From positions 1 to 29,722 of the IMG/VR virus record IMGVR_UViG_3300012952_000082: a DNA stretch of 29,722 nucleotides; one strand, given 5' to 3'. The notes beneath the pieces are model-generated. The model searched no databases and was not told the DNA's origin. It saw only the letters and a program-made list of their open reading frames with translations. Positions 3,274 through 29,722 of the stretch are shown here, one piece after another. The stretch is from a virus. Taxonomy: Duplodnaviria > Caudoviricetes. How positions within the stretch are numbered: position 1 is the stretch's first letter; each line of letters starts with the position of its first letter. The translations under genes were made by a program, and so were the position numbers.

Positions 3274-5307
3274 ATGATAGGTAATGCTCTTCCAATTCCG
3301 TGGTTGAGGAGCATATATAGTTCCTCTGGTCCATCAGGTCCACAACCTTTCATATTAAAAATAGATACTAATAATACTTTTGGTGGTCCAAATTACCCAT
3401 TCGGAATAAACACAGACTCTTTATATACTTACGATTATACCGTTGATTGGGGAGATGGAACTATAACAAGTCACACTGGTAACGCTAGTCACACGTATAG
3501 TACTCAAGCTATTTATGAAGTGAAAATATCAGGAGAATGTCCATGGATAAAATCATGGACTACTAGTACTGGTATAAATTATGTAGTTGACATAATACAA
3601 TGGGGTGATTTAGAGTTTAAAAGTTTAAAAGAAACATTCAAATCTTGTAGTATGTTAGGTAATCCAGATGGGACTAGTTCTACTCCTGGTATACCATTAA
3701 CAGTGACAGATACACCTACATTTGCAAGCGACTTTGCTTTTGATGGTTTATCTGGGTGGGCAGAAAGAACTTACTTCACCTCAATACCTAACCTAAATTC
3801 CTGGCAAATCCCAGATGTTTTAACTAGTCTTGAGAAGTGCTTTTACGATATGAAGTGGTGGAATGATAGTATCTCAAACTGGGATGTATCGCATGTTGGT
3901 AATTTTAAAAACATGTTTTTCTTCTGTAGAGAATGGACAAACAGTGGTGATGATTTGAATGGTTGGGAAGTTGGTAAAAATTATACTGGTGATTTAAACT
4001 TTGAATCCATGTTTTACTATTGTGACAAAATAGAAGATATTAAAATTTGGAAACAAGATTTGCATTTATTAAACATAAATTTTATAAATACTAAGTTTAT
4101 GTTTTATCAATGTGAAAAATGGAAACTAGAGTTAGAAAACTGGGATAATTCTTCAGTTAAGATAAACGAACTAGAAGGAATGTTTTACGGTGTTGGCTTT
4201 TATTACGCTGGTAATAACTCAAACGGAGGAGGACGCCAATATACTGATGAAGGTTTAAAAACTGATTTTTTTGGTTGGGATTTTAATACTAATAAAACAT
4301 CTCTTAGAGCTTTATTTTCTAATGCTTGTTTTGACGCAACGTTTAATGCAAACTTAGATGGTCATACGGCGACTAATATCACCGATTTTGATAATATGTT
4401 TGCTAATACTTTTATATGTTCTCCAACTAGTGTAGATAACTGGGTATTGGGAAATACACCTAATATTACAATGCGTTACACTTTTAGTGGTAGACCTTTC
4501 AATAGGTGGCCAGGTCCACAAGAAAGAAGAGCTTTGGATTGGAAAGGAGATTTTGGATCAGTTCAAACATTAAATGGGTGGGACGTCTCTAATGTTATAG
4601 ATTTTGACGGATGTTTCAATAGTGCACAGTTTGATACGGGACCAGATGATTGCAAACCAATACTAGGTAGTTGGACTATATGCACAGATCCAACAGTTAA
4701 CGTAAGCTTAAGTCGTATGTTCAGAAACAGTCAGTTCAACGATACTTTAGTAAATGATATAAACAAATGGGATTTAAGTAGTGTTACCAGTATATTTGAA
4801 ACGTTTGGAGGTTCTGGTGGAGTTAGATTTAATCAATCCCTAAGCAACTGGGACACTAGTAATGTTACAAATATGGCCCAGTTTGTTTATTACAACGTTT
4901 ACTTTAATCAAGACATATCTCATTTTAATTTAGAAAAAGTTACAACAGTAAATAGGTTTTTTGATAAAACTCAAAATTATTCCTATGGGATGGATTGGAT
5001 GGAAATGCCTTTGATAACAGACGGTGAAAGATTTCAATTTCAATGGAAGTTTGATACTCAAAAATATACGGACACTTTAAATGCTTGGGCTTTATATTAT
5101 TATAATAGAGTACAGGCTGGTTTAACAGTTCCTCAAAACATATTAATGACATTTAACACTATAGGTTATTGGGGTGTTACAAATTACTTTATAGCAGGGT
5201 TAAATACTTTACCAAACGGGTTAACTACTAGGGATTATTTAATAACCGCAACTACTGCTGGTGTACCTGGCTTAGGTTGGACATTACAAGATGGAGGAGG
5301 TATATAA
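3274..5307 (+). CDS. PKD-like domain plus BspA/DUF285-type repeat protein (677 aa), probable virion adhesin
   Basis: YTVDWGDGT...SHTY...YEVKISG is PKD-like. Repeats such as ISNWDVSHVGNFKNMF, LNGWDVSNVIDFDGCF, INKWDLSSVTSIFETF and LSNWDTSNVTNMAQFV are typical of DUF285/BspA-family proteins. Confidence 0.8.
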   Translation: MIGNALPIPWLRSIYSSSGPSGPQPFILKIDTNNTFGGPNYPFGINTDSLYTYDYTVDWGDGTITSHTGNASHTYSTQAIYEVKISGECPWIKSWTTSTGINYVVDIIQWGDLEFKSLKETFKSCSMLGNPDGTSSTPGIPLTVTDTPTFASDFAFDGLSGWAERTYFTSIPNLNSWQIPDVLTSLEKCFYDMKWWNDSISNWDVSHVGNFKNMFFFCREWTNSGDDLNGWEVGKNYTGDLNFESMFYYCDKIEDIKIWKQDLHLLNINFINTKFMFYQCEKWKLELENWDNSSVKINELEGMFYGVGFYYAGNNSNGGGRQYTDEGLKTDFFGWDFNTNKTSLRALFSNACFDATFNANLDGHTATNITDFDNMFANTFICSPTSVDNWVLGNTPNITMRYTFSGRPFNRWPGPQERRALDWKGDFGSVQTLNGWDVSNVIDFDGCFNSAQFDTGPDDCKPILGSWTICTDPTVNVSLSRMFRNSQFNDTLVNDINKWDLSSVTSIFETFGGSGGVRFNQSLSNWDTSNVTNMAQFVYYNVYFNQDISHFNLEKVTTVNRFFDKTQNYSYGMDWMEMPLITDGERFQFQWKFDTQKYTDTLNAWALYYYNRVQAGLTVPQNILMTFNTIGYWGVTNYFIAGLNTLPNGLTTRDYLITATTAGVPGLGWTLQDGGGI

Positions 5308-17985: not shown

Positions 17986-20900
17986 ATGGCTAATGAACTA
18001 AGAAGTACCTTCATCAGATCTAAAATGAATAAAGATCTTGATGCAAGGATTGTACCACCTGGAGAATACAGAGATGCAGTTAACATAGCAGTAAGTAAGT
18101 CAGAAGGAGCTGATGTTGGTGCTGTAGAAAACGTTTTAGGAAATAAAATAGTTTCTGATTTTGGTCTTAATTCTACTTTTCCAAATACAGAGTGTATAGG
18201 TATATATGGAGATAAAACAAATAATAGAATATTTGTTTTCTTAACTGATTACACTGACAATTCTGAAGACCTACTTAGTAATAAAGCTTTTTCAGGAGCT
18301 TTTTGTGGTATATACGTTATTGACTTTGAAGCTGGAAATAATTATAAAAAGTTAGTTCAAGGGTCATGGTTAAACTTTTCTAAAAATAGCCCAATATTTG
18401 GTATTAGTTTATTAGAAGACACACTATTTTGGACAGATAATAGAAATCAACCTAGAAAAATAAGTGTTAGTAAAGCTTTAGATAGACCAGCGGATTCTGC
18501 TAATCCATATTACCAGATAGAAGAAAATATATCAGTTGCTACTTATTACCCTTATGAACCAGCACAAGTTTATGATGAATACGAAGTTGAGGTTGTTGTA
18601 AGAACTTCTAATATAAAAGCAGATACAAGAACTAACGCAGGTTGTAGTGTTGCAAGTCCTGGTATTAATCCAATACAAAACGCTGTAAACTTAGGTACTC
18701 CACCTGAACCACCTGAAAATTATCCTCAAACCGGTTGGCAAACTATGTTTCAAATAACTAGTGAAATACCAGAAGGTTTAAAATTACATCCTGGAATACA
18801 ATTTTATATAAAAAAATCAACGCCTGGCGAAAACCCATTAGTGCCAGGAACTACATTTGGTGCACTACAAAATATAACTTCGTATCCATATTATAATGAA
18901 ATAAGAAATTATCCTATAGCGTGGGGACCTAGTAATTTTGGAGACTGTTATAATGGAAGTACTAAATACGATTTAACTAGCGCTAATTTAGCTCTTAGAC
19001 CTCAAGCAGGTTATGGTACTGCACAAGAAAAAGGTAATGGATTAATTGGTATGTCTTGCTCTTATGAGTATTTAACTAATCCTGAAGCTTTATTAACAGC
19101 TAATGACGGTACTAGTGTTTTAACCGCTAATATAGGACCTGCATCGGAATTTCCTGTAGGCGCTGATTTTGGCCATGAAAGTGCCGATTATCAAGAAAAT
19201 TATTTAAAATGGTTTTATTCTAATATACCTTTATTAGATGGCAATGAAGATTATACAGATTCATTTAGTACAGCTTGGTATGGAACAGCTACATTAGTAT
19301 TTGTAGTACCTAAAATGGTTAATAAAACTGACCAATTTTTACCACCAACATATAGAAATAAATTTGAAGGATTCTATCCACATGATAGTGCTACAACATT
19401 ACCTGACACATCCTGTGAGGGTGATGCTGGAGTCGGTAATCGTAATTATCGACTTGCTTCTAATGGTGCTACTATAGATGAAGTAGAAGCTTTAGGTGTT
19501 AAAAATGTTACTGTTAATCAAAGTTGGTTTCCTAGAATTACAGGAGATTCCGATCTAGCTAATTACCCATATTACGATGGTAATATCAATCAGGGTGGAA
19601 ATGATATGATTCTAGTATCCCCAAATTACGGAGGTGATGGTAATACTCAAGTTACGTTGTTAACACCTTATCAACGATCTGTAAGCGCAGGAATGTTTAG
19701 GGTTCTTAATAATGTAAATGGTTACGAATTAGGTGGGGCTGGACTTGGTGATGGAAATGCTAGTTCTTCTTATTTAAAAAACTACTTACAACCAGGAATG
19801 AGAATTTACTCTCCTATGTTTAATAGATTACCGTATGATTTCTATATTGATCAAATATTTATTAAAACAGTACAAGGAATTACCGTTCCACTTGGTTATA
19901 CTTATTTTAGTGTGTATGCTAAAGACAAATTTGGAAATTATATAGAAGATTGGGTAATGCCAGGGTTTTGTGATGTTAAAGATGCATCTTGGATTGACTT
20001 CCAATTTGTTAACCCTTACTATGATCCTTTGTTTAGCGGGGATAAAGAATATTTAAAAGATAAATTTTGTAAACTATCTTATAGGTTTCAATTTGAAAAC
20101 AACGAGTTTTCTTTAATAGCTCCTTTTACTCAAACAATGTTTGCTCCACTAGATGAAGGTTATTATACTTTTAATGCGGATAGATGGGATATACAAGAAG
20201 GAGGTACAGCTTTCTTAATGAATGGAGGTGCTGAGCCAACTAGCTCTATAGAAACAACTTCTCAAGGAACTATAAATCCATTATATCAAAACAGTATTAA
20301 TGAGGTTTCTTTAGTTATTAAAGCACCTAGAGTAGGAACTGAATATATAAAGTGGAATGAAGCTGAAGATAAATTAAAAATAAAAAATTTACAGATAATT
20401 TTTTCAGAATCAGATAGCAATAATTTAAGATTGTTGAAATCGATTCCTATGTCAGATCCTACTGTTATTAGTAATGACACTGATTCTTATGTTTATGTTT
20501 GGCAAGGTGATAAACCAATAAAATCACTACCTTCTAATGAGTCAACTAGAGTTTGGGATCAAGTACCTTTAAGAGCTTTAGCACAAGAGATATCAGGAAA
20601 TAGAGTTATTTATGGTAACTTTGTTGATAAGCATAGTTCACCTGATTTTTTAGATTTTGATATTGGTGTAGATGGAAAATACAATGTGGATACAGAGTTT
20701 TCTAATGACGCTAGAGTTCAATACAAATATCAAACTTTAAAAGGTAACAGAAGTTATCAAGTAGGTGTTGTTTTAGCCGATAAATTCGGAAGACAAACTG
20801 ACGTTATATTATCTTCACCTTCTGTAATTACATCATCAAATAACGAAACTTTATTTAGCGGTGATACTTTTACAGCACCTTATTTATCTGAAGAAAAAGC

Positions 20901-23325
20901 TATAAGTCTGCTAAAAGTAACAGGTAACAATTTAAGTAATTGGGAAGGAGATAGTTTAAAAATGCTATGGAGAAACCCTATACCAAACTCTATAGCTGGA
21001 TTAGATGGGTATCCTGGTCTATACACGGAAGAAGGAGGAGTTTCAAGAGACAACAATAGTATTGTAGTAGAAACTGCAGGATCAGATAATTATAGTGTAG
21101 CTAGAAATGTACCAACTCTAGCAGTTACAGGTGTTGGAGAAGGATTAACATTTGACATAAACGATGTAGATAGCGGTCCTATTCAATTCCCTACTGATCT
21201 ATATGTAAATAAACCTGGTAGAGGATATAAACCAGGTGATATAGTTAAAATAGAACAAGGTGGTGCTGATCAATGTGAAGTAAGAATATTAAAAGTAACT
21301 GAAGAAAACACTTTAGGCTTTTATTCTTACAAGGTAGTTGTTAAACAAGATCAACAAGATTATTATAATTTGTATCTTCCTCAAATAATTAATGGAGAGC
21401 CATTAACTAGTCAAGCTTTTGCTGGCGGATTTAATGAAGATATTCTAGTAAGTCAAGATTCTAAATTAACTTTTCCTACAATAGGAGATAATGTTAATAA
21501 AATACAAAGAGACGTTGAAGAAAGCAATGATTTAATAAAATTTATATCTAGTAGTACTACTTTATGGCCAAGAGTATCTCAATTTGGTGGGGTTTATATA
21601 AATCCATGGGTTAATTCTACTTCAGGTTCAGGTGCTGGAAATGTATGGACAGTTGATGTTGGTACTATTCAAACTGGAAATGTATTTAATCAAAAAGTAG
21701 CGGATAGTGTTATAAACGTGGGTCAAGTAGATGACATATATGGTCAAAATGTTACTAATGTTACTTATCAAACAGTAGATGCTTTAGTATATAAACAACA
21801 AGCAAACCCATGGATAACTGTAGCGGAAAACGACGTTAACAGAAATCCATTTATGAAAAAGTGGGAAGCAGCTTATGGTCCTAATTATGGTGGTGGTGGT
21901 CCAACTGCCGGTGTATTAGCGGAAAATTACGCACAATATTATGATGCTATAGAATGTACTATTGATCAACGTATAATTCCAACAGGTGTTGGCGCTGCTG
22001 GTAATTTATCTCCAAATAATGCAACATCTCCTTCTTATAGTAATGTTACATTTGGAACTTTTAACTGTGGCTTAGCCGTTGTTGAAACTACGCCATTTGA
22101 ATCTAATATAGATATATATTGGGAAACTTCTACAGCTGGTACTATAGCAGATTTAAACTACGCTATAGAAACAAATGTAGATGAACAGCAATTATTTTCT
22201 GTAGATATAGATAGAAATCCAAATGGATGGAATGAAAATGATGAATCGTTATATTGGTTGCTTCAAGAAAATACAGCTCTACCAGCTGGTCAACCTTATG
22301 ATCCAGATAATTTTTATCCACTTTCTGGACCTAGTGGAGCGTATGATCCATGGATACTTTCAGTTACCCCTAAAAATGTAGTAGGTGGAATTATACCTCT
22401 AAATAGAGTTGTTGGCACACCAACAGTTACAGTTGTAGATAATTTAGGTAATTCATATCCAACTGTTTTTATAATGAATAATAATACTACAGGAACTAGT
22501 GAATTTAAACTTTATAACCTTTCTCAACAAATTCCTTATCTTTCTGCTCCAGGTCAAGGTCATACATTTACAGCTACAATAACTTTTGAAACTTTACCTG
22601 AGTTACCTATAGACCCTAACTTTATTAAAAGTTTTGATGTGCAATTTGATTTAGAAAATCATGAACCAGAAAGAATTACTAATCCAAGAAATCCTAGAAG
22701 AGACTATGGACCAGGAACTGCTGACTGGGGTGATCCTTGGCCTGTTCCTTCAGCAGAAGCTACTTGTGCTCCTCAACTTACAACTACAGATACTGGAGTT
22801 GTTGTAGGTAAAATACCTTGCCCATCTTTAGGGAGTGATCTTGGAGAAGAACCTAGTTATACTAATGGTATGTTTATACAGCCGTTTTTCCCTGTGGTAG
22901 GTGGACCACCTCCACCGACAGCAAATTGGGGAGCTCCTGAAGACACTAATTTCCAAGGTAGATTTGGTATACCAGAAAGAGCAGGTGACGAATTAAAATG
23001 GGAAATAACTAAATGTGTAACCGCTCAAATTGATGTAGTTAATAATATTTTAGTTCCTTTACCTACTACTGATCCTAATTATTATAATGCCTTAGCTAAT
23101 GTAGATTGGGTTTATGGAGATAATGGTTACTTTGATGATCCTGTTGGAAATGGAACAGGTTCACAGTTTAACGGGATAGAAGTAACAAGTGCTATACCTC
23201 AGACAGGTATATACTTGCTTGAGTGGAAGGTAACAGATGCAAATGATAATGACGCTGATGGTAATGAGTTATCATTGGCTTATCCAGAACCTGGTATAAT
23301 TCAAATGGCTTTTGAGATTGTGTAA
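17986..23325 (+). CDS. Tail stabilisation/muzzle protein, N-terminal part (1779 aa, large insertions)
   Basis: KMNKDLDARIVPPGEYRDAVN, LFWTDNRNQPRKI, SYRFQFENNEFSLIAPFT, QEISGNRVIYGNF and YQVGVVLADKFGR are motifs of crAss-like/P22 gp10-type stabilisation proteins. Confidence 0.7.
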   Translation: MANELRSTFIRSKMNKDLDARIVPPGEYRDAVNIAVSKSEGADVGAVENVLGNKIVSDFGLNSTFPNTECIGIYGDKTNNRIFVFLTDYTDNSEDLLSNKAFSGAFCGIYVIDFEAGNNYKKLVQGSWLNFSKNSPIFGISLLEDTLFWTDNRNQPRKISVSKALDRPADSANPYYQIEENISVATYYPYEPAQVYDEYEVEVVVRTSNIKADTRTNAGCSVASPGINPIQNAVNLGTPPEPPENYPQTGWQTMFQITSEIPEGLKLHPGIQFYIKKSTPGENPLVPGTTFGALQNITSYPYYNEIRNYPIAWGPSNFGDCYNGSTKYDLTSANLALRPQAGYGTAQEKGNGLIGMSCSYEYLTNPEALLTANDGTSVLTANIGPASEFPVGADFGHESADYQENYLKWFYSNIPLLDGNEDYTDSFSTAWYGTATLVFVVPKMVNKTDQFLPPTYRNKFEGFYPHDSATTLPDTSCEGDAGVGNRNYRLASNGATIDEVEALGVKNVTVNQSWFPRITGDSDLANYPYYDGNINQGGNDMILVSPNYGGDGNTQVTLLTPYQRSVSAGMFRVLNNVNGYELGGAGLGDGNASSSYLKNYLQPGMRIYSPMFNRLPYDFYIDQIFIKTVQGITVPLGYTYFSVYAKDKFGNYIEDWVMPGFCDVKDASWIDFQFVNPYYDPLFSGDKEYLKDKFCKLSYRFQFENNEFSLIAPFTQTMFAPLDEGYYTFNADRWDIQEGGTAFLMNGGAEPTSSIETTSQGTINPLYQNSINEVSLVIKAPRVGTEYIKWNEAEDKLKIKNLQIIFSESDSNNLRLLKSIPMSDPTVISNDTDSYVYVWQGDKPIKSLPSNESTRVWDQVPLRALAQEISGNRVIYGNFVDKHSSPDFLDFDIGVDGKYNVDTEFSNDARVQYKYQTLKGNRSYQVGVVLADKFGRQTDVILSSPSVITSSNNETLFSGDTFTAPYLSEEKAISLLKVTGNNLSNWEGDSLKMLWRNPIPNSIAGLDGYPGLYTEEGGVSRDNNSIVVETAGSDNYSVARNVPTLAVTGVGEGLTFDINDVDSGPIQFPTDLYVNKPGRGYKPGDIVKIEQGGADQCEVRILKVTEENTLGFYSYKVVVKQDQQDYYNLYLPQIINGEPLTSQAFAGGFNEDILVSQDSKLTFPTIGDNVNKIQRDVEESNDLIKFISSSTTLWPRVSQFGGVYINPWVNSTSGSGAGNVWTVDVGTIQTGNVFNQKVADSVINVGQVDDIYGQNVTNVTYQTVDALVYKQQANPWITVAENDVNRNPFMKKWEAAYGPNYGGGGPTAGVLAENYAQYYDAIECTIDQRIIPTGVGAAGNLSPNNATSPSYSNVTFGTFNCGLAVVETTPFESNIDIYWETSTAGTIADLNYAIETNVDEQQLFSVDIDRNPNGWNENDESLYWLLQENTALPAGQPYDPDNFYPLSGPSGAYDPWILSVTPKNVVGGIIPLNRVVGTPTVTVVDNLGNSYPTVFIMNNNTTGTSEFKLYNLSQQIPYLSAPGQGHTFTATITFETLPELPIDPNFIKSFDVQFDLENHEPERITNPRNPRRDYGPGTADWGDPWPVPSAEATCAPQLTTTDTGVVVGKIPCPSLGSDLGEEPSYTNGMFIQPFFPVVGGPPPPTANWGAPEDTNFQGRFGIPERAGDELKWEITKCVTAQIDVVNNILVPLPTTDPNYYNALANVDWVYGDNGYFDDPVGNGTGSQFNGIEVTSAIPQTGIYLLEWKVTDANDNDADGNELSLAYPEPGIIQMAFEIV

Positions 23326-23354: not shown

Positions 23355-25292
23355 ATGGCAACAATAATAGAAATAGATTACTATAACGCTTTTTGGACTA
23401 AAAAGATATACACAGGACCAGGCGCTGCTCCAACAACTGGAGGTGAAACCTATGCTGGAGGATCTGCTTGTTATCCTGGACCAGTTGGATTTGGTGATTC
23501 TGTTAAAGGTTTAGGTAATATAACTACTTTTAGCGAGCAAGACGGTGGGCCAGTTCCATCTTCTTTAGATAAATGGCCTAATATTAATTCAGCTAATTTT
23601 GGAGTTCCTAGTGGTCCTTTAAATCCTGTACAACAACAAATATTAAGCACAAACTTTTACATAGAAGATAGTAGAATAAGAGGTGGTTATAATAATACAC
23701 AGGTAAATTTAGGTGTTAGGGCTTATTTGAACGAAGATAATCCTTTACAAAAACATCGTATAAACTCTTTAATATATTCAGGTCCACTAAATAGTTTAAC
23801 AAACTTTAATGAAACAAATGTATTTTCAATAGGAGAAAGTATAACTAAGTCGGTAGACCCATCTTATAACTCTATACAATATCTATCTGCTGACGATACT
23901 AACTTGCTTATAATGCAAGAGAATAAAACTAGCTATGCTTTAATTGATAAAGACGCTATATATTCTGCAGAAGGATCTGGAACTCCAGTATCTACAGAAA
24001 CGGAAGTTATTGGTCAAGTGGTTCCTTACTTAGGAGAATATGGTATAAGTAGAAATCCAGAATCATTTGCTAGATTTGGTTTTCAAAAATACTTTGTAGA
24101 TAAAGATCGTAGTGCTGTTATGAGGCTATCTAGAGATGGTTTAACAGAAATCTCTGAGTATGGCATGAAAGATTATTTTAGAGACGAATTAGAGCTTGTA
24201 ACTGATGAAATGAGATTAGATAATACTAACGTCTACAATACGTTTGGGGCTGGTGGAAGTTTGATTGGGGAATATATATACGTAGCGCAAGATCCTGGAG
24301 TTGTGGTTGCTCCACCACTTGGTAGTTTAGTTAGATTTGACAATTACACTGGTAATATGAGACCTTATGTTATAAGAGTAGTGGCAGTTGCTGGCGGTTG
24401 GGTAGCATACCTACGAGGTTGGCCAGAAGTTGGAGGAGTTAAAGTTGCTGTACCTGCTACTTGTTATTTTCAAACCAAAATAAAAGGTAGAGTTTTAGGA
24501 GCTTATGATATATATGGAAAACAATACACAGTTTCTCTACAGAAAAATCCAGCTACTAAAAACCAAATTGATTTAGAAAGTTTAGATGATTATCAAACAG
24601 TTGGTTTTGACGAGTCAATAAATGGTTGGGTAAGTAGATATACTTATAAACCTTGGCAAGCGGTTAGTTTAGAAAATAAATTCTATACTGTTGGTCCAGA
24701 TAATAGAAGATACAAAGTATGGCAGCAATATGAAGATACTGTTGATAGAGGAGACTTCTATAGTCAAGGTGTTCTTCCTTCAGCTATAACTTTCTTTGCT
24801 AATGGCGAACCTTCTCATAGTAAAGTTTTTCAAACTATTTCTTACGAAGGATCTAGCGGTTGGTATATTGCAAGTATACTCAGTGATGAAGAAGGAAAAG
24901 ATTTAGTAAATAATGTATGGGAAGAGTTTACTGATCAAACAACTGTTGTTTATAGTTATATAGAAGGACAGTATGAATTAAACACTCCTACTAATACAGG
25001 ATTAAACGCAGATCCGGCTGTTGATACTATTATACATGCTGGTTTTGATAGAAAAGAAAATAGATACGTAGCTAATTTAGTACAAAAAATAACACAAAAC
25101 GATCCAACACTTGGACCTCCAAATGATCCACCTTATTACCCAGTAAGACCAGGTGAAGTTATATCAGGTTCAGATATGAGTGGTATAAAAGGTTTTTATT
25201 CTACAATTACAATAGCTACTGATAACGTTACAGAAGTAGGTGGACCTAAAGAGTTATTTACTGTAGCAACTAAAGTAGTTAAATCATCTTAA
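23355..25292 (+). CDS. Tail stabilisation/muzzle protein, C-terminal part (645 aa)
   Basis: LIYSG, GEYGISRNPESFA, YFVDKDRSAVMRLSRDGLTEISEYGMKDYF, GWVSRYTYKP and KVFQTISYEG are beta-propeller-type motifs of the same family. Confidence 0.7.
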   Translation: MATIIEIDYYNAFWTKKIYTGPGAAPTTGGETYAGGSACYPGPVGFGDSVKGLGNITTFSEQDGGPVPSSLDKWPNINSANFGVPSGPLNPVQQQILSTNFYIEDSRIRGGYNNTQVNLGVRAYLNEDNPLQKHRINSLIYSGPLNSLTNFNETNVFSIGESITKSVDPSYNSIQYLSADDTNLLIMQENKTSYALIDKDAIYSAEGSGTPVSTETEVIGQVVPYLGEYGISRNPESFARFGFQKYFVDKDRSAVMRLSRDGLTEISEYGMKDYFRDELELVTDEMRLDNTNVYNTFGAGGSLIGEYIYVAQDPGVVVAPPLGSLVRFDNYTGNMRPYVIRVVAVAGGWVAYLRGWPEVGGVKVAVPATCYFQTKIKGRVLGAYDIYGKQYTVSLQKNPATKNQIDLESLDDYQTVGFDESINGWVSRYTYKPWQAVSLENKFYTVGPDNRRYKVWQQYEDTVDRGDFYSQGVLPSAITFFANGEPSHSKVFQTISYEGSSGWYIASILSDEEGKDLVNNVWEEFTDQTTVVYSYIEGQYELNTPTNTGLNADPAVDTIIHAGFDRKENRYVANLVQKITQNDPTLGPPNDPPYYPVRPGEVISGSDMSGIKGFYSTITIATDNVTEVGGPKELFTVATKVVKSS

Positions 25293-25303
25293 AATAATAA
25301 AAA

Positions 25304-26053
25304 ATGACAATACCTCCACAATTAATACAAGCAGGCGTCCAAGTTGGAATCGGTTTAATGGCTAAGGGAAAAGCTAATAAAATGGATGAGCAATTACAAA
25401 CTGCTCAAACAAATTTAGAAACAGCTATTGATAGTAGACCAGATATAATAAATCCATATGCCGGTGTTCAAGCTTACCAAGCTGAAGATTTATCACATAT
25501 GATAAAAAATCCTTATGCTAACCTTAGAGTAGCTACGAAAGCCACTGAAATACAGATGGAACAGACAGATCAAGCTCTAGCAAACACTCTAGACACTTTA
25601 GCCGTCAGTGGTATGGGGGCTGGTGGCGCAACAGCTTTAGCGCAAGCAGCGGCAAAAGGCAAACAAGATATTGCTGCTGATATAGCACAACAAGAGGTTA
25701 ATAATGACAAATTAAGAGCTCAAGGCGAAATGCAGGTTATGCAAGCTAAAATGGCTGAAGGTCAAAGAATACAAGGTATTGAACAATCTGAAGCTGCTAG
25801 GGTACAAAATGCAAACGCAGCTGGTGAACAATTTATGTTTCAACAAGCAGACGCAAGAGCAACACAAGACATGGATAGAGCTCAAGCAGAATTAGATAAC
25901 TTACAAGCTCAGCAAAATCAATACAACAGTGATGCGGCTAGTAGTTTTGGCTCTGCTGCTGGTACTGCTTTTGGAAGTGTTAGTATGAATTCTAGTGGAG
26001 ACTGGAGTTGGGCAACTTCTAACAATCAATCAAACACGCCGGGAAATCCATAA
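25304..26053 (+). CDS. Internal virion (ejection) protein 1 (249 aa; possible 281-aa frameshift isoform)
   Basis: A/Q/G-rich helical protein with glycine-rich hydrophobic stretches (GVQVGIGLM, GMGAGGATALAQAA), located after the tail genes as in podoviruses. Confidence 0.65.
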   Translation: MTIPPQLIQAGVQVGIGLMAKGKANKMDEQLQTAQTNLETAIDSRPDIINPYAGVQAYQAEDLSHMIKNPYANLRVATKATEIQMEQTDQALANTLDTLAVSGMGAGGATALAQAAAKGKQDIAADIAQQEVNNDKLRAQGEMQVMQAKMAEGQRIQGIEQSEAARVQNANAAGEQFMFQQADARATQDMDRAQAELDNLQAQQNQYNSDAASSFGSAAGTAFGSVSMNSSGDWSWATSNNQSNTPGNP

Positions 26054-26148
26054 CCGGGAGCGGTAATAATACTCAAAATGAATTTTCTGATGATGAATGG
26101 AACGCTATAAACTTTGGCATAGACGCTTTTAGCTCACTATATAATTAA
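26041..26148 (+). other. Candidate -1 programmed ribosomal frameshift site with 33-codon extension
   Basis: In-frame G_GGA_AAT at 26041-26047, a 5-nt spacer, then hairpin ACCG-GGAG-CGGT. The -1 frame is open to TAA at 26146-26148. Confidence 0.65.
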
Positions 26149-26152
26149 AACT

Positions 26153-28345
26153 ATGGGAACATACACACAACCTTCACAAATAATAGATACTTCTTTTGGA
26201 GACTTTTCAAAAGCTGCAACTGCTTCGTATGATAAAGAGCAAGCTAAAATAGCTGCTCGTCAAAAAAATATGCAGGCAATGGCTGCAAAAGTCTTAAAAG
26301 AAAGACAAAAGAAATTGCTAGCAGCTCAAAACGCTCAACTTAAAAAAGAAGGTGGAATTGCAGAAGAAGTAGCTAATACTGAAGCGGCTGTTCAAGGTTA
26401 TACAGATAACAGACAACATATGGGTTTGAAAATAACTCGTGATGATGGTGGAACCCAAGTAACTCAATTAAATGCAGATAATTGGAATAGCTATAGTAAA
26501 CTTATAGAAAATTACTCTTTATACTCCACTCCTATAAACACAACATCTGGTAAAGGTGAAAGACAATTGGGTTCTGGCTTTGAAGATGATGGATCTGGTA
26601 ATTTTACATATACAGGAGATGATCTATCTACGCCTGGCGTAACTGAATTAGGTTATCAAGTAAAGTTTTCTAAAGATGAGTTAGACTGGTTAGAGCATGC
26701 TATGGTTACAGAAAACAGGCAAGTTAAACTTAATAATAAATTGTTAGGTGGTACACCTAAGATTGAAAATGATCAAGAAACTGACATGCATATAACTGAT
26801 TGGTATAACAGTTATAAAGGTAAGTTTCAAAACGAAGGAGATCTTTCATTGGGTATAGATGGTAGCATGAATGCTCAAATAGAACTGGCAGGAGCTATGA
26901 TGGGTAAGTATGATAAAAACTCACCTCAATATCAACAAAATAGATTAATTTTAGAATCAACTCAAAAAGAAATGCCTGAGTTTATAGGTATGTTAAATAA
27001 TCTTAAAGACTTACAAAAGAAAATAACTAAAAGTAATGGAACTTTAAAAGAAACAAATCAAGTTAATTCTATTAGATATGATTTAGGAGGCACTCCTCAA
27101 GAGCAACAGCAATTTGAATTACAAACTAATTTTGCTCTTGACTGGGGACAGCCAAATACAGCACATAGATTTCACACGTTACTTTCCCCAACTGGTCCTA
27201 AAATAGTTTATTATAATCCTCACATATCTGATAAGGAGTTTATAGTTACTAAAGAAGATGTAGCTAAATGGGCAGAGAATAATGGTAACATGGGTGTTTA
27301 TACATTAGATCAAGAATCATTAGATGTAGTTGAAGAAAATCTGGAAAAAAGTATTAGAACTACAAAACCTGTTTATACAAGGAGTAACAATAAATATCAA
27401 ATAACTAGACAAGATGGTACTGTTACAGAGGTTAGTGAGTCGGAAGCTGCATTAGATTTTTCTACTCAAAATGATTTAACATATGAAGATATTCAATCAT
27501 TTTTCTATGATAAAGATAGAATAGTTGGAAATGGTTTTGGAAATGGAAGTGTAGATGCTGGAGATTTTGATGGACAAAATACATGGCAACTTATAGGTGG
27601 ACCTAAAGCTGAAGGAGGTAAATATGGTTTAAATTGGATTGATATAAGTAAATGTACTAGCGTTGAATGTAAAGAAAGAGCTAGAGCACAACAAGATTAT
27701 ATGGTCGAACATTACATGAATAAATATAGAAAAGATAATTATTCTACTTTAGATACTAAAACTATAAAAACTTTAAAGAAAGATGGAAACAAGCAAAAAG
27801 CAGATTCATTTGTTAGCGGTGAAAGTAAAATAACTTTTAATGATACTAGTTTAAGTGGTTATGGTTTTAAAAGAGATAGTGATGGAGAAAGCGAATATAC
27901 TGTAGAAGAAATAGCTAGTAAATATGATCAATTAAGAGTAACTAATAATAATGGGGTAAATGGTATAGCTGAATTGTTAAATAACGTAGCTAACTACGCA
28001 ACTAGTAGTGGATCACCTATTCAATATATGTCAGGTGCTCAATTAAGAAAAATGTACAGCGATAATGGTTTTCAAGTAGACGCTGCTGATTACCCTGATG
28101 AAGTTAATGGGAGATTAAATCTTTATTACATAGGTGGTAGTGGTACTCCTGCTTCTATATCAATAGGTAGTCAAGCTGAATTTATAAAAAGAGTTGCTAA
28201 ATCTAGCGGCGTTTCTAATGGTGTAGCGACACAGATACAATCAAGCTTTGGTAACACTACACAAGTAACTACAGATATAGTTATGAATAGAACAAATAGT
28301 GAAATATTCGACATGCTATCTTCAGATCTACCAACTTTAGGTTAA
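26153..28345 (+). CDS. Probable internal virion (ejection) protein 2 (730 aa)
   Basis: MGTYTQP start, N-terminal coiled coil, hydrophilic. Assigned by position between the small and the large internal protein genes. Confidence 0.55.
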   Translation: MGTYTQPSQIIDTSFGDFSKAATASYDKEQAKIAARQKNMQAMAAKVLKERQKKLLAAQNAQLKKEGGIAEEVANTEAAVQGYTDNRQHMGLKITRDDGGTQVTQLNADNWNSYSKLIENYSLYSTPINTTSGKGERQLGSGFEDDGSGNFTYTGDDLSTPGVTELGYQVKFSKDELDWLEHAMVTENRQVKLNNKLLGGTPKIENDQETDMHITDWYNSYKGKFQNEGDLSLGIDGSMNAQIELAGAMMGKYDKNSPQYQQNRLILESTQKEMPEFIGMLNNLKDLQKKITKSNGTLKETNQVNSIRYDLGGTPQEQQQFELQTNFALDWGQPNTAHRFHTLLSPTGPKIVYYNPHISDKEFIVTKEDVAKWAENNGNMGVYTLDQESLDVVEENLEKSIRTTKPVYTRSNNKYQITRQDGTVTEVSESEAALDFSTQNDLTYEDIQSFFYDKDRIVGNGFGNGSVDAGDFDGQNTWQLIGGPKAEGGKYGLNWIDISKCTSVECKERARAQQDYMVEHYMNKYRKDNYSTLDTKTIKTLKKDGNKQKADSFVSGESKITFNDTSLSGYGFKRDSDGESEYTVEEIASKYDQLRVTNNNGVNGIAELLNNVANYATSSGSPIQYMSGAQLRKMYSDNGFQVDAADYPDEVNGRLNLYYIGGSGTPASISIGSQAEFIKRVAKSSGVSNGVATQIQSSFGNTTQVTTDIVMNRTNSEIFDMLSSDLPTLG

Positions 28346-28361
28346 TATATAAAATAAAATA

Positions 28362-29722
28362 ATGGATAAATTAACATACGCACAATCTTTAATAGATCAA
28401 GGCTTAGATAAAGAAACTTTTATTTTGGAAATGGATAAATTTGATGCACAAAACATTGTTAATGATGTTGAATGTGGAGAAGGTTTTGAAAAAGACGAAA
28501 ACAATAATTGCGTTCCTGTGGGAAAGCAAGACCCCGCTGTAAATGCTGTGGAGACAGTGGATGTAGAAAACACAGTAGAAGATCCCAATGGGGATTTAGT
28601 ATCGGAAAATATTTTATCGGTATCCTCAGATGGTGATCCATTAAAGACTAATAAAGGTTTTACATATACGGAAACAGAAAAACCTTGGCAAGGAAATAGT
28701 CTTCAAGAAAACTTAGCTAAAATAACTAAAGAACAAGGATTAAGTGAAGATTTTTTTGAAGATCAAACAAATGTTAATAGATTTATAAAAATACTAGAAA
28801 GAGAATACGCTGACGCTACAGTAGAACAACCTAATTTAGACGAAGAATTAAACATGGGTGTTAATTCAATTAAGTCATGGGCTAAGAAGGGTAATAATTT
28901 TTTAAATGGTTATAATCTAAAAGATCCGAATTCTGGAGAACAGCCAAAGTTTGATGAAAATGGAGATATTACTGATCTTTACTTAACATATGTTCGTACT
29001 CATAAGGACTCTTATAATATATCTCCAGAAATTCTTGCTGAAGAAGGATTTGTAGATGATAATGGTTATTATACTTATAACGCTATGAGAGCTGGTTTAG
29101 GTAAGGAAGGTGAAACACCTAACTATCAATACTGGTATAATAAAGCTAAAAGAAATACTAGCGGAGAGCTTTTTAGAACCCCTATTAAGTATGAATTAGA
29201 CAATGATGGTAATATCATAAATTCTGAATTCAACAAACAATTAACTGAAAATACTTACGTAGATCAATTTGGTAATACTTTTAACGTAAACCCTAACTTA
29301 GGGGAATTTTTACCTACTCACATATTAAATGTCAATGAAGAGACAGGTGAAGTAACTAATATTCCAAATCCAGATTTAATTTCTGAAAACTCAACTTTAT
29401 ATCAAAGAGAACAAAACTTTAAAGAAGCTGCACTGAGTCAAGTACCAGACGTTAAAGCTGAAGATTATCAAGTATTAGGGTATGTTTACAAACCTACTAG
29501 TGTTGATGTGAATGTCATGGGTGAAAGAACGGGTGTAGAAAACGCTTTACAAAGAGAAAAATCCCTTGCAATTGCTAATGAAAAAAACATCGCTATAATA
29601 AACGATTTAAAAAGTCAACTTGAAGAATTTGATATTCAAAAAATTACAATTGGAAACGCTATAAAAGGTTTAGCAGAACAAATAAAAAACCCTGATAGTG
29701 ATAAAACCTTATCTGCTTTAAT
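28362..29722 (+). CDS. Large probable internal virion protein 3, 3'-truncated (at least 453 aa; missing from ORF track)
   Basis: ATG at 28362 after an A/T-rich leader. MDKLTYAQSLIDQGLDKETFILEMDKF... stays open to the window end (...PDSDKTLSAL). Very acidic and N-rich. Confidence 0.8.
   Translation, partial: MDKLTYAQSLIDQGLDKETFILEMDKFDAQNIVNDVECGEGFEKDENNNCVPVGKQDPAVNAVETVDVENTVEDPNGDLVSENILSVSSDGDPLKTNKGFTYTETEKPWQGNSLQENLAKITKEQGLSEDFFEDQTNVNRFIKILEREYADATVEQPNLDEELNMGVNSIKSWAKKGNNFLNGYNLKDPNSGEQPKFDENGDITDLYLTYVRTHKDSYNISPEILAEEGFVDDNGYYTYNAMRAGLGKEGETPNYQYWYNKAKRNTSGELFRTPIKYELDNDGNIINSEFNKQLTENTYVDQFGNTFNVNPNLGEFLPTHILNVNEETGEVTNIPNPDLISENSTLYQREQNFKEAALSQVPDVKAEDYQVLGYVYKPTSVDVNVMGERTGVENALQREKSLAIANEKNIAIINDLKSQLEEFDIQKITIGNAIKGLAEQIKNPDSDKTLSAL
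28520..28636 (+). other. Candidate -1 programmed ribosomal frameshift cassette with H-type pseudoknot
   Basis: In-frame G_GGA_AAG at 28520-28526 and a 7-nt spacer. Stem 1 is CCGCTGT/ACAGTGG and stem 2 is TGCTGTG/CACAGTA. The -1 frame gives 36 codons to TGA at 28634-28636. Confidence 0.75.

Follow-up and report, generated by a model that had tools for sequence, protein, structure and literature searches.

We found that the giant virion gene at the 3' end of the window carries, at codon 55, a predicted −1 frameshift signal leading into a conserved reading frame. The window is the whole stretch of DNA analyzed, 29,722 bases, and is an entire virus record that is about half complete. Our reading is that a slippery site and a pseudoknot at codon 55 cause a −1 shift and so give a 91-residue protein ending in a conserved hairpin; judging from the sequences compared, we put the probability of this whole explanation at about 0.8.

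The window encodes a GroES-like gene, a terminase, a P22-like portal, and capsid, ring, and crAss-type muzzle genes. By terminase and portal, its nearest named relatives were Elemovirus, Pervagoviridae, Pachyviridae, Maribacter phage Panino, and a spring-water podovirus. The source is an uncultured flavobacterial-type short-tailed phage. Downstream of the muzzle genes lies a small-medium-giant trio, on the plus strand like all features below. It starts with a conserved structural gene of 249 aa (25304..26053), our synteny anchor, followed by a 730-aa gene (26153..28345). The third is the giant gene, whose 5' part (28362..29722) is truncated by the end of the record; the 90%-identical protein cluster of ORF 28362 contains a 3641-aa member. 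Searches of the giant protein in Pfam, PHROG, and NCBIfam returned no match, either to an RNA polymerase or to a cargo family. The trio is arranged like gp45-gp50 of PhicrAss001 and gp14-16 of T7, which are also small, medium, and giant genes downstream of the muzzle. The PhicrAss001 cargo proteins gp45-gp50 are expected to form a trans-envelope channel (PMC10172136), and the main text of that paper has no occurrence of "frameshift". From its position and this analogy, we infer a cargo or ejection role for the ORF 28362 product.

Codons 53-55 of ORF 28362 (GTG GGA AAG) contain, in phase, the slippery heptamer G_GGA_AAG (28520..28526). A 7-nt spacer (28527..28533) separates it from a predicted H-type pseudoknot (28534..28577) that shows covariation in the family. 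Stem 1 (28534-40/28554-60) and stem 2 (28544-50/28571-77) each have 7 bp, one of them G-U, and the pseudoknot loops are 3, 3, and 10 nt. The −1 frame tail (28526..28636) has 36 codons and a TGA (28634-36); within it, the conserved core (28583..28630) is predicted to form a two-stranded β-hairpin with a Gly-Lys turn and one hydrophobic face. The coordinates given in the initial annotation were all correct.

The 55 codons common to both products (28362..28526) encode an acidic N-terminal module with 2 Cys, as had been claimed (13 D/E vs. 5 K/R). The predicted product therefore has 55 + 36 = 91 aa and 2 + 4 Cys, and it is absent from the annotation. Its tail had been said to hold a basic Cys/His cluster; it is basic (9 K/R, 1 D/E) and has four Cys, with only one His. 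The four Cys codons (28538..28564), three of them within the pseudoknot stems, are specific to one class of relatives and not universal. Upstream, the −1 frame is closed by a TAA (28505-07). The claim that this frame has no ATG of its own stands, but the in-frame TTG directly after the stop (28508; both codons, 28505..28510), a possible unconserved start, had been overlooked. In the shared N-terminus, we also observed a two-Cys mini-motif, CxxGF...CV (28473-28514), that is missing from most relatives; it is like the repeats of P0127, an unrelated protein that looks secreted, and is found again in P0126.

There are 72 in-frame X_XXY_YYZ heptamers in the window (9748 codons), and 12 of them precede a pseudoknot of some kind whose stems are no shorter than 5 bp. 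Only the one at 28520 has a 7+7 bp pseudoknot, and among the −1 frames behind these heptamers its own ranks second in length (36 codons). In 500 dinucleotide shuffles, its stacking sum of −25.1 kcal/mol was never reached; this sum is a score of our own and does not amount to a complete energy model of a pseudoknot. The nested fold was unremarkable (z −0.6 to −1.9), the two stems coming out as near-equal alternatives, and the search for Rfam frameshift elements gave 0 covariance-model matches at E up to 1. One close relative (L002) retains the heptamer and the frame and has an A-U in place of the G-U of stem 1.

Homolog searches with the N-terminus of the giant protein gave only near-identical relatives, so loci were collected by synteny, through alignment on the 249-aa gene (80 viral, 80 metagenome, and 24 genome-bin loci). 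A profile HMM of the −1 peptide, built on 42 viral seeds, gave no match away from this position in 21,854 six-frame segments. Among the metagenome gene starts, 36 of 52 carried it, without exception in the −1 frame, and nothing else reached the threshold in 17370 six-frame segments; 28 of the 80 loci had been left out because they held fewer than 130 codons of the gene, and 4 of those 28 match too. Genome-bin starts gave the motif in 13 of 19 cases (5 of 24 dropped), again always in the −1 frame and with nothing else in 4318 segments. Some metagenome and genome-bin contigs duplicate seeds, which means that these sets are not fully independent. The 24 genome-collection matches (L304-L327) are all contigs from metagenome bins; about ten bear a Bacteroidota label, and none comes from a cultured genome.

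The pooled viral and metagenome loci comprised 121 gene starts, 97 of them non-redundant. The same −1 peptide was present in 65 of these 97 syntenic genes, which bears out the conserved GxYFIG-like tail for which a check had been set beforehand. A DNA pattern for the motif found at least 120 viral loci, 112 of them distinct, and in all 112 the motif was −1 to the giant ORF; we estimate that about 230 stored viral stretches fit the strict motif pattern.

Statistics on the 12-codon core were calculated for 61 of the 65 genes, as four had no pattern match. Amino-acid identity was highest in the −1 frame (0.59), compared with 0.36 for frame 0 and 0.33 for the +1 frame. The synonymous share of the differing core codons was 0.37 in the −1 frame vs. 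0.09 (0 frame) and 0.06 (+1 frame), and a control stretch of the 249-aa gene gave the reverse (0.06 in the −1 frame, 0.51 in the 0 frame). Without the three Gly columns forced by selection, the core statistic drops to 0.23 (−1) vs. 0.11 (0 frame). TCG made up 78 of the 161 Ser codons in the core and 73 of 2568 elsewhere, an excess expected if its G starts a Gly codon in the −1 frame. From these comparisons, the −1 peptide is under selection, in that core substitutions spare the −1 frame and not the annotated one. The length of the open frame was dropped as evidence, since the +1 frame was open for 28 codons in 63 of the 97 starts; between the site and the tail end, the +1 frame has a stop in 59 of 62 genes.

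The HMM missed 32 of the 97 non-redundant relatives. Because 10 of these 32 keep a long −1 frame, about 22 (about a quarter) are without the cassette. The absences are scattered over the tree, which suggests that the product is not essential in all lineages, and site types and cassette absences are interspersed on it; the tree, a quick one of the neighbouring anchor gene in which a long branch (L027) was mis-extracted, serves for this point only. Tails that diverge, being rich in Trp or having hairpin insertions, were seen behind the same kind of site at L024, L074, L080, L098, L100, L112, L318, and L325.

A shift-prone site in the open −1 stretch was present in 62 of the 65 motif genes vs. 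14.2 expected, under a pattern (NNNA_AAG, NNAU_UUU, or G_GGA_AAN) that was defined after seeing the data. A conserved heptamer-type site at this position had been anticipated and was confirmed. Its lambda-type specificity was not: G_GGA_AAG accounts for only 15 of the 62 sites, and G_GAU_UUU (12) and A_GUA_AAG (12), the other common ones, are equally used. In E. coli, G_GGA_AAG is highly shift-prone, and A_AAG is the basic bacterial site (PMC5009743). In the relatives, the −1 frame opens a few codons ahead of the site.

A strong pseudoknot (stacking sum of −20 kcal/mol or lower) followed the shift-prone tetramer in 47 of the 65 genes vs. 4 of 476 control tetramers farther down the same genes; our search did not find one in the other 18. 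With the site fixed beforehand, 36 of 62 genes passed vs. 49 of 2480 shuffles. The spacer was 6-7 nt in 37 of the 55 genes with a called pseudoknot. Across 36 distinct cassettes, 81.5% of the alignment cells pair, compared with 27-49% in slid controls; these cassettes were preselected for a pseudoknot, and the window's stems have the family geometry in another register of that alignment. Double changes occurred in 15 of the 17 stem pairs, and none of 500 shuffles reached the paired share, in agreement with the stem covariation that had been foreseen. RNAalifold found stem 2 unaided. The sequence features by which −1 programmed frameshifting is recognized were found: an in-frame site, a covarying 3' structure 5-9 nt on, and a selected trans-frame ORF without a conserved start. 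On this sequence evidence, a −1 frameshift very probably yields a short second product.

In the mechanism that we propose, the pseudoknot would pause the ribosome and allow tRNA-Gly and tRNA-Lys to re-pair on GGG AAA. The majority of ribosomes would remain in frame and make the giant protein, and a fraction would shift −1 and make the 91 residues, so that the frameshift would set the ratio of short to giant protein. The short protein could then associate with the giant cargo protein through their shared N-terminal module. Its hairpin, with one fully hydrophobic face, three near-invariant glycines, and flanking K/R, may pack into a ring or onto a membrane during packaging or ejection.

Not all relatives have the site and pseudoknot. 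At 32 of the 112 pattern-found loci, an A9-10 run lies upstream of the motif in their place; 31 of the 32 have no pseudoknot, and 31 have no Cys between the run and the motif. Of the other 80 loci, 77 have a site and 46 a strong pseudoknot, with at least two Cys in 67 of 77. An A9-11 run was also found at the same place in eight named phage records and in two more Pachyviridae. A matrix of the core ranked the tail after the run first in phi18:3, phi13:2, Panino, and the spring phage (27,000-66,000 six-frame windows); in Gundel_1, phi38:1, Calle_1, and elemo, whose matches are weak, it came among the top 5-8. The equivalence of the giant genes in the named phages was taken from gene order and, in three of six, from HMM matches of the small gene; blastp of the giant protein P0004 vs. 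these six giant proteins showed no similarity. For the A-run class only, polymerase slippage is the likelier route.

In the five deposited genomes of four Cellulophaga Pachyviridae and Panino, which have an A9 run, the giant gene is annotated as split, which the element described here explains. With A9, the N-terminal module, the giant ORF, and the tail motif of phi46:3, phi18:3, phi13:2, phi19:3, and Panino fall in three frames (L091:24119-24760, L174:7310-7790, L175:8119-8600, L176:8056-8540, L173:18470-18900). This layout is probably a homopolymer error. The Cellulophaga phage genomes presumably come from 454-era sequencing, and Panino was assembled from Nanopore reads only (PMC11590407). 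A real three-frame arrangement was not accepted, since the A10 of Gundel_1 is in frame in the same context and the IMG/VR A-run loci are in frame in 32 of 32 cases. The hidden tail of Panino has the hairpin motif twice in tandem (L173:18640-18760, minus strand).

Six called proteins of 86-92 aa have the N-terminal module, a lysine run, and the tail motif in one frame; they may come from run-length variants, transcripts, or assembly error. The tail motif was seen in frame with the N-terminal module in P0129-P0134, P0135, and P0128, the last two of which resemble pseudoknot-class genes with a frame change.

Predicted products in the family have 67-120 aa (median 83). Their net charge is −6 for the N-terminal part and +6 for the tail. 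N-terminal modules, common to the short and the giant protein, vary by lineage and are often tandem helical repeats. The constant part is the basic tail, a predicted amphipathic β-hairpin with the consensus YGxxxGx(W/Y)FFG. Structure prediction placed the hairpin at residues 22-28 and 31-37 of 38 with pLDDT about 71, and the remainder was below 55. AlphaFold modeling of the one-frame protein P0133 without an alignment gave four helices in the N-terminal module and an unstructured tail, and the hairpin thus comes from one prediction. Core positions 1, 3, 5, 8, 10, and 12 are hydrophobic in 50-61 of the 61 genes, and the opposite face holds Gly, a small residue, and Phe. Searches with the tail in Pfam, PHROGs, PDB sequences, and the ESM Atlas gave no match, and P0133 matched only unnamed viral clusters, under the 0.9 lead threshold.

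What the short protein does can be read from these sequences only tentatively. It may be an adaptor for the giant cargo protein, a role to which we give somewhat less than an even chance, and a soluble, gpGT-like assembly chaperone comes close behind. The three strictly conserved glycines favour tight packing over loose lipid binding, and 7-residue strands are short for crossing a membrane. Selection on the tail sequence itself speaks against pure stoichiometry control, one of the roles first suggested. In phi18:3, gp122, the N-terminal piece, has no MS/MS note, and gp120, gp121, and gp123 have one; this is a weak hint that the N-terminal module is not in mature virions. A broader proposal is more tentative still. 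A widespread group of aquatic Bacteroidota podoviruses, cultured ones included, might have an unannotated fourth protein of the ejection module, made by recoding only, whose invariant hairpin would form a small ring or barrel and anchor the giant cargo protein at the envelope; the routes would have been swapped repeatedly between pseudoknot shifting on at least three site types and polymerase slippage on an A-run.

An improbable alternative is that the short product is made for metal binding, with Zn or Fe-S held by CxC/CC, for example as a metal-dependent switch or crosslinker. CxC occurs in 60 of 63 pseudoknot-class tails, two Cys columns are at least 90% conserved, and the G of the stem-1 Cys codon is kept even though A-U would pair (column pair 21-50: CG 17, UG 15, UA 0). 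However, the Cys cluster, which the initial annotation had stressed, is missing from 31 of the 32 A-run loci, and most cultured relatives carry none or one Cys. The Cys codons moreover sit in the stems and disappear when a stem is flipped, and the model leaves the region around them unstructured (pLDDT 52-54). As the general function, metal binding is excluded.

It is quite improbable that the tail is a membrane-active anti-host peptide, a lysis helper or envelope permeabiliser that has nothing to do with handling the giant protein. Cationic hairpin antimicrobial peptides are positively charged and Cys-rich and form an amphipathic hairpin, and the tail shares all of this, with a charge of about +6. 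The tail is, however, always fused to the acidic N-terminal module of the cargo protein, which such a role does not need, and it matches no family.

The TTG at 28508, immediately behind the upstream stop, and the A-rich stretch before it, like that at a real start, could mark the −1 frame as a separate 42-aa gene; alternatively, the frame could be the untranslated mirror of a conserved RNA or DNA signal. We regard both as very unlikely. A start codon (ATG/GTG/TTG) for the −1 frame is present in 1 of the 65 motif genes, that of the window, and missing in the other 64, and the frame is not open until a few codons ahead of the site. An untranslated signal does not agree with substitutions that obey the genetic code of the −1 frame, or with a core lying mostly beyond the pseudoknot.

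The shift could also merely trim the output of the giant protein and leave the short product as waste. Loss of the cassette in about a quarter of the lineages would suit this; we consider it most unlikely, since a stop right behind the site would suffice for trimming and the 12-codon motif is retained across phages whose giant proteins cannot be aligned. That RNA polymerase slippage, and not the ribosome, changes the frame in the window is scarcely credible: an A9-11 run stands here in 32 of 112 relatives and the eight named phage records, and runs of 9 A/T slip efficiently (PMC5009743), but the window's site has only three A's where at least 9 A/T are called for, it has the heptamer, spacer, and covarying pseudoknot, and only 1 of the 32 A-run loci combines run and pseudoknot, so that the two are nearly exclusive.

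The predicted −1 shift resembles that of lambda gpG/gpGT in the common N-terminus, the setting among virion-assembly genes, and the heptamer, which in lambda is reportedly G_GGA_AAG as well. Unlike lambda, the phage here is short-tailed with a muzzle and a P22-like portal, the gene does not lie between major tail and tape-measure genes, and the stimulator is a pseudoknot. The lambda shift at the 3' end gives a longer product, whereas here it would come at codon 55 of about 3600 and give a shorter one. Lambda gpG and gpGT are two products with a common N-terminus, made in a fixed ratio from a virion-assembly operon, and G_GGA_AAG is given for g-t of HCTV-5 (PMC5009743). Homology to tail-assembly chaperones was looked for in PHROG and Pfam, and none was found. 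The window element falls outside the lambda G/GT family and works like copA and dnaX recoding.

In copA, a stop is said to follow right after the shift, which releases the N-terminal domain alone. The window is like copA in having an early −1 shift in a long gene; unlike copA, it adds 36 selected new codons. The early −1 shift of E. coli copA is efficient and gives a 70-aa product beside the 834-aa one (PMC5009743). In E. coli, the tau and gamma products of dnaX arise by a ribosomal −1 shift; in Thermus thermophilus, they arise because the polymerase slips on a run of 9 bases (PMC5009743). The family described here likewise has two interchangeable recoding routes across lineages, the pseudoknot class and the A-run class, but dnaX recoding truncates; here, no element of the region is more conserved than the one that the new frame encodes. 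Capsid and tail frameshifts are known in gene 10 of T7/T3 and in Lactobacillus phage A2 (PMC5009743); these too recode structural genes of tailed phages, some of them podoviruses, but by 3'-end extension or gene joining. The nearest printed case is Alteromonas virus H4/4, for which a single sentence predicts an endolysin/internal-virion-protein shift (PMC5658483); there, the internal virion protein is the shifted product, and the layout differs from that of the window.

The mechanism is already known. What appears to be new is the locus, together with the selected tail and the exchange of one route for the other, as no description of them was found in the mainly open-access literature searched. 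If our reading is correct, a common aquatic phage group has a missing gene, and the most conserved protein sequence of this part of the genome is the one missing from every annotation. The family would also add a natural bacterial pseudoknot frameshift signal with real covariation and be a second clear case, after dnaX, in which ribosomal shifting and an A-run route serve one end. The cultured relatives phi38:1, Calle_1, elemo, and phi18:3 allow direct testing.

Several minor observations were made on other genes. The giant protein P0004 has an HExxH at residue about 1690 and a DxDxT (HAD-like) at about 2780; elemo, Gundel_1, and the spring phage have an HExxH in their giant proteins too. A probable fibre protein (3274-5307) has DUF285 repeats and a weak PKD domain. 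The muzzle-like protein is split over two ORFs (17986-23325 and 23355-25292), one matching the N-terminal and the other the C-terminal part of a single PHROG/Pfam family. Four codons ahead of its stop, the 249-aa gene has an in-frame G_GGA_AAU (26041-26146) whose −1 frame is open for 33 codons over the intergenic gap; no pseudoknot was called, and a shift there could lengthen the protein. Two U_UUA_AAA heptamers in the muzzle gene, at 18777 and 20955, have −1 frames open for 37 and 32 codons, and the one at 20955 has a weak pseudoknot; both are probably due to chance.
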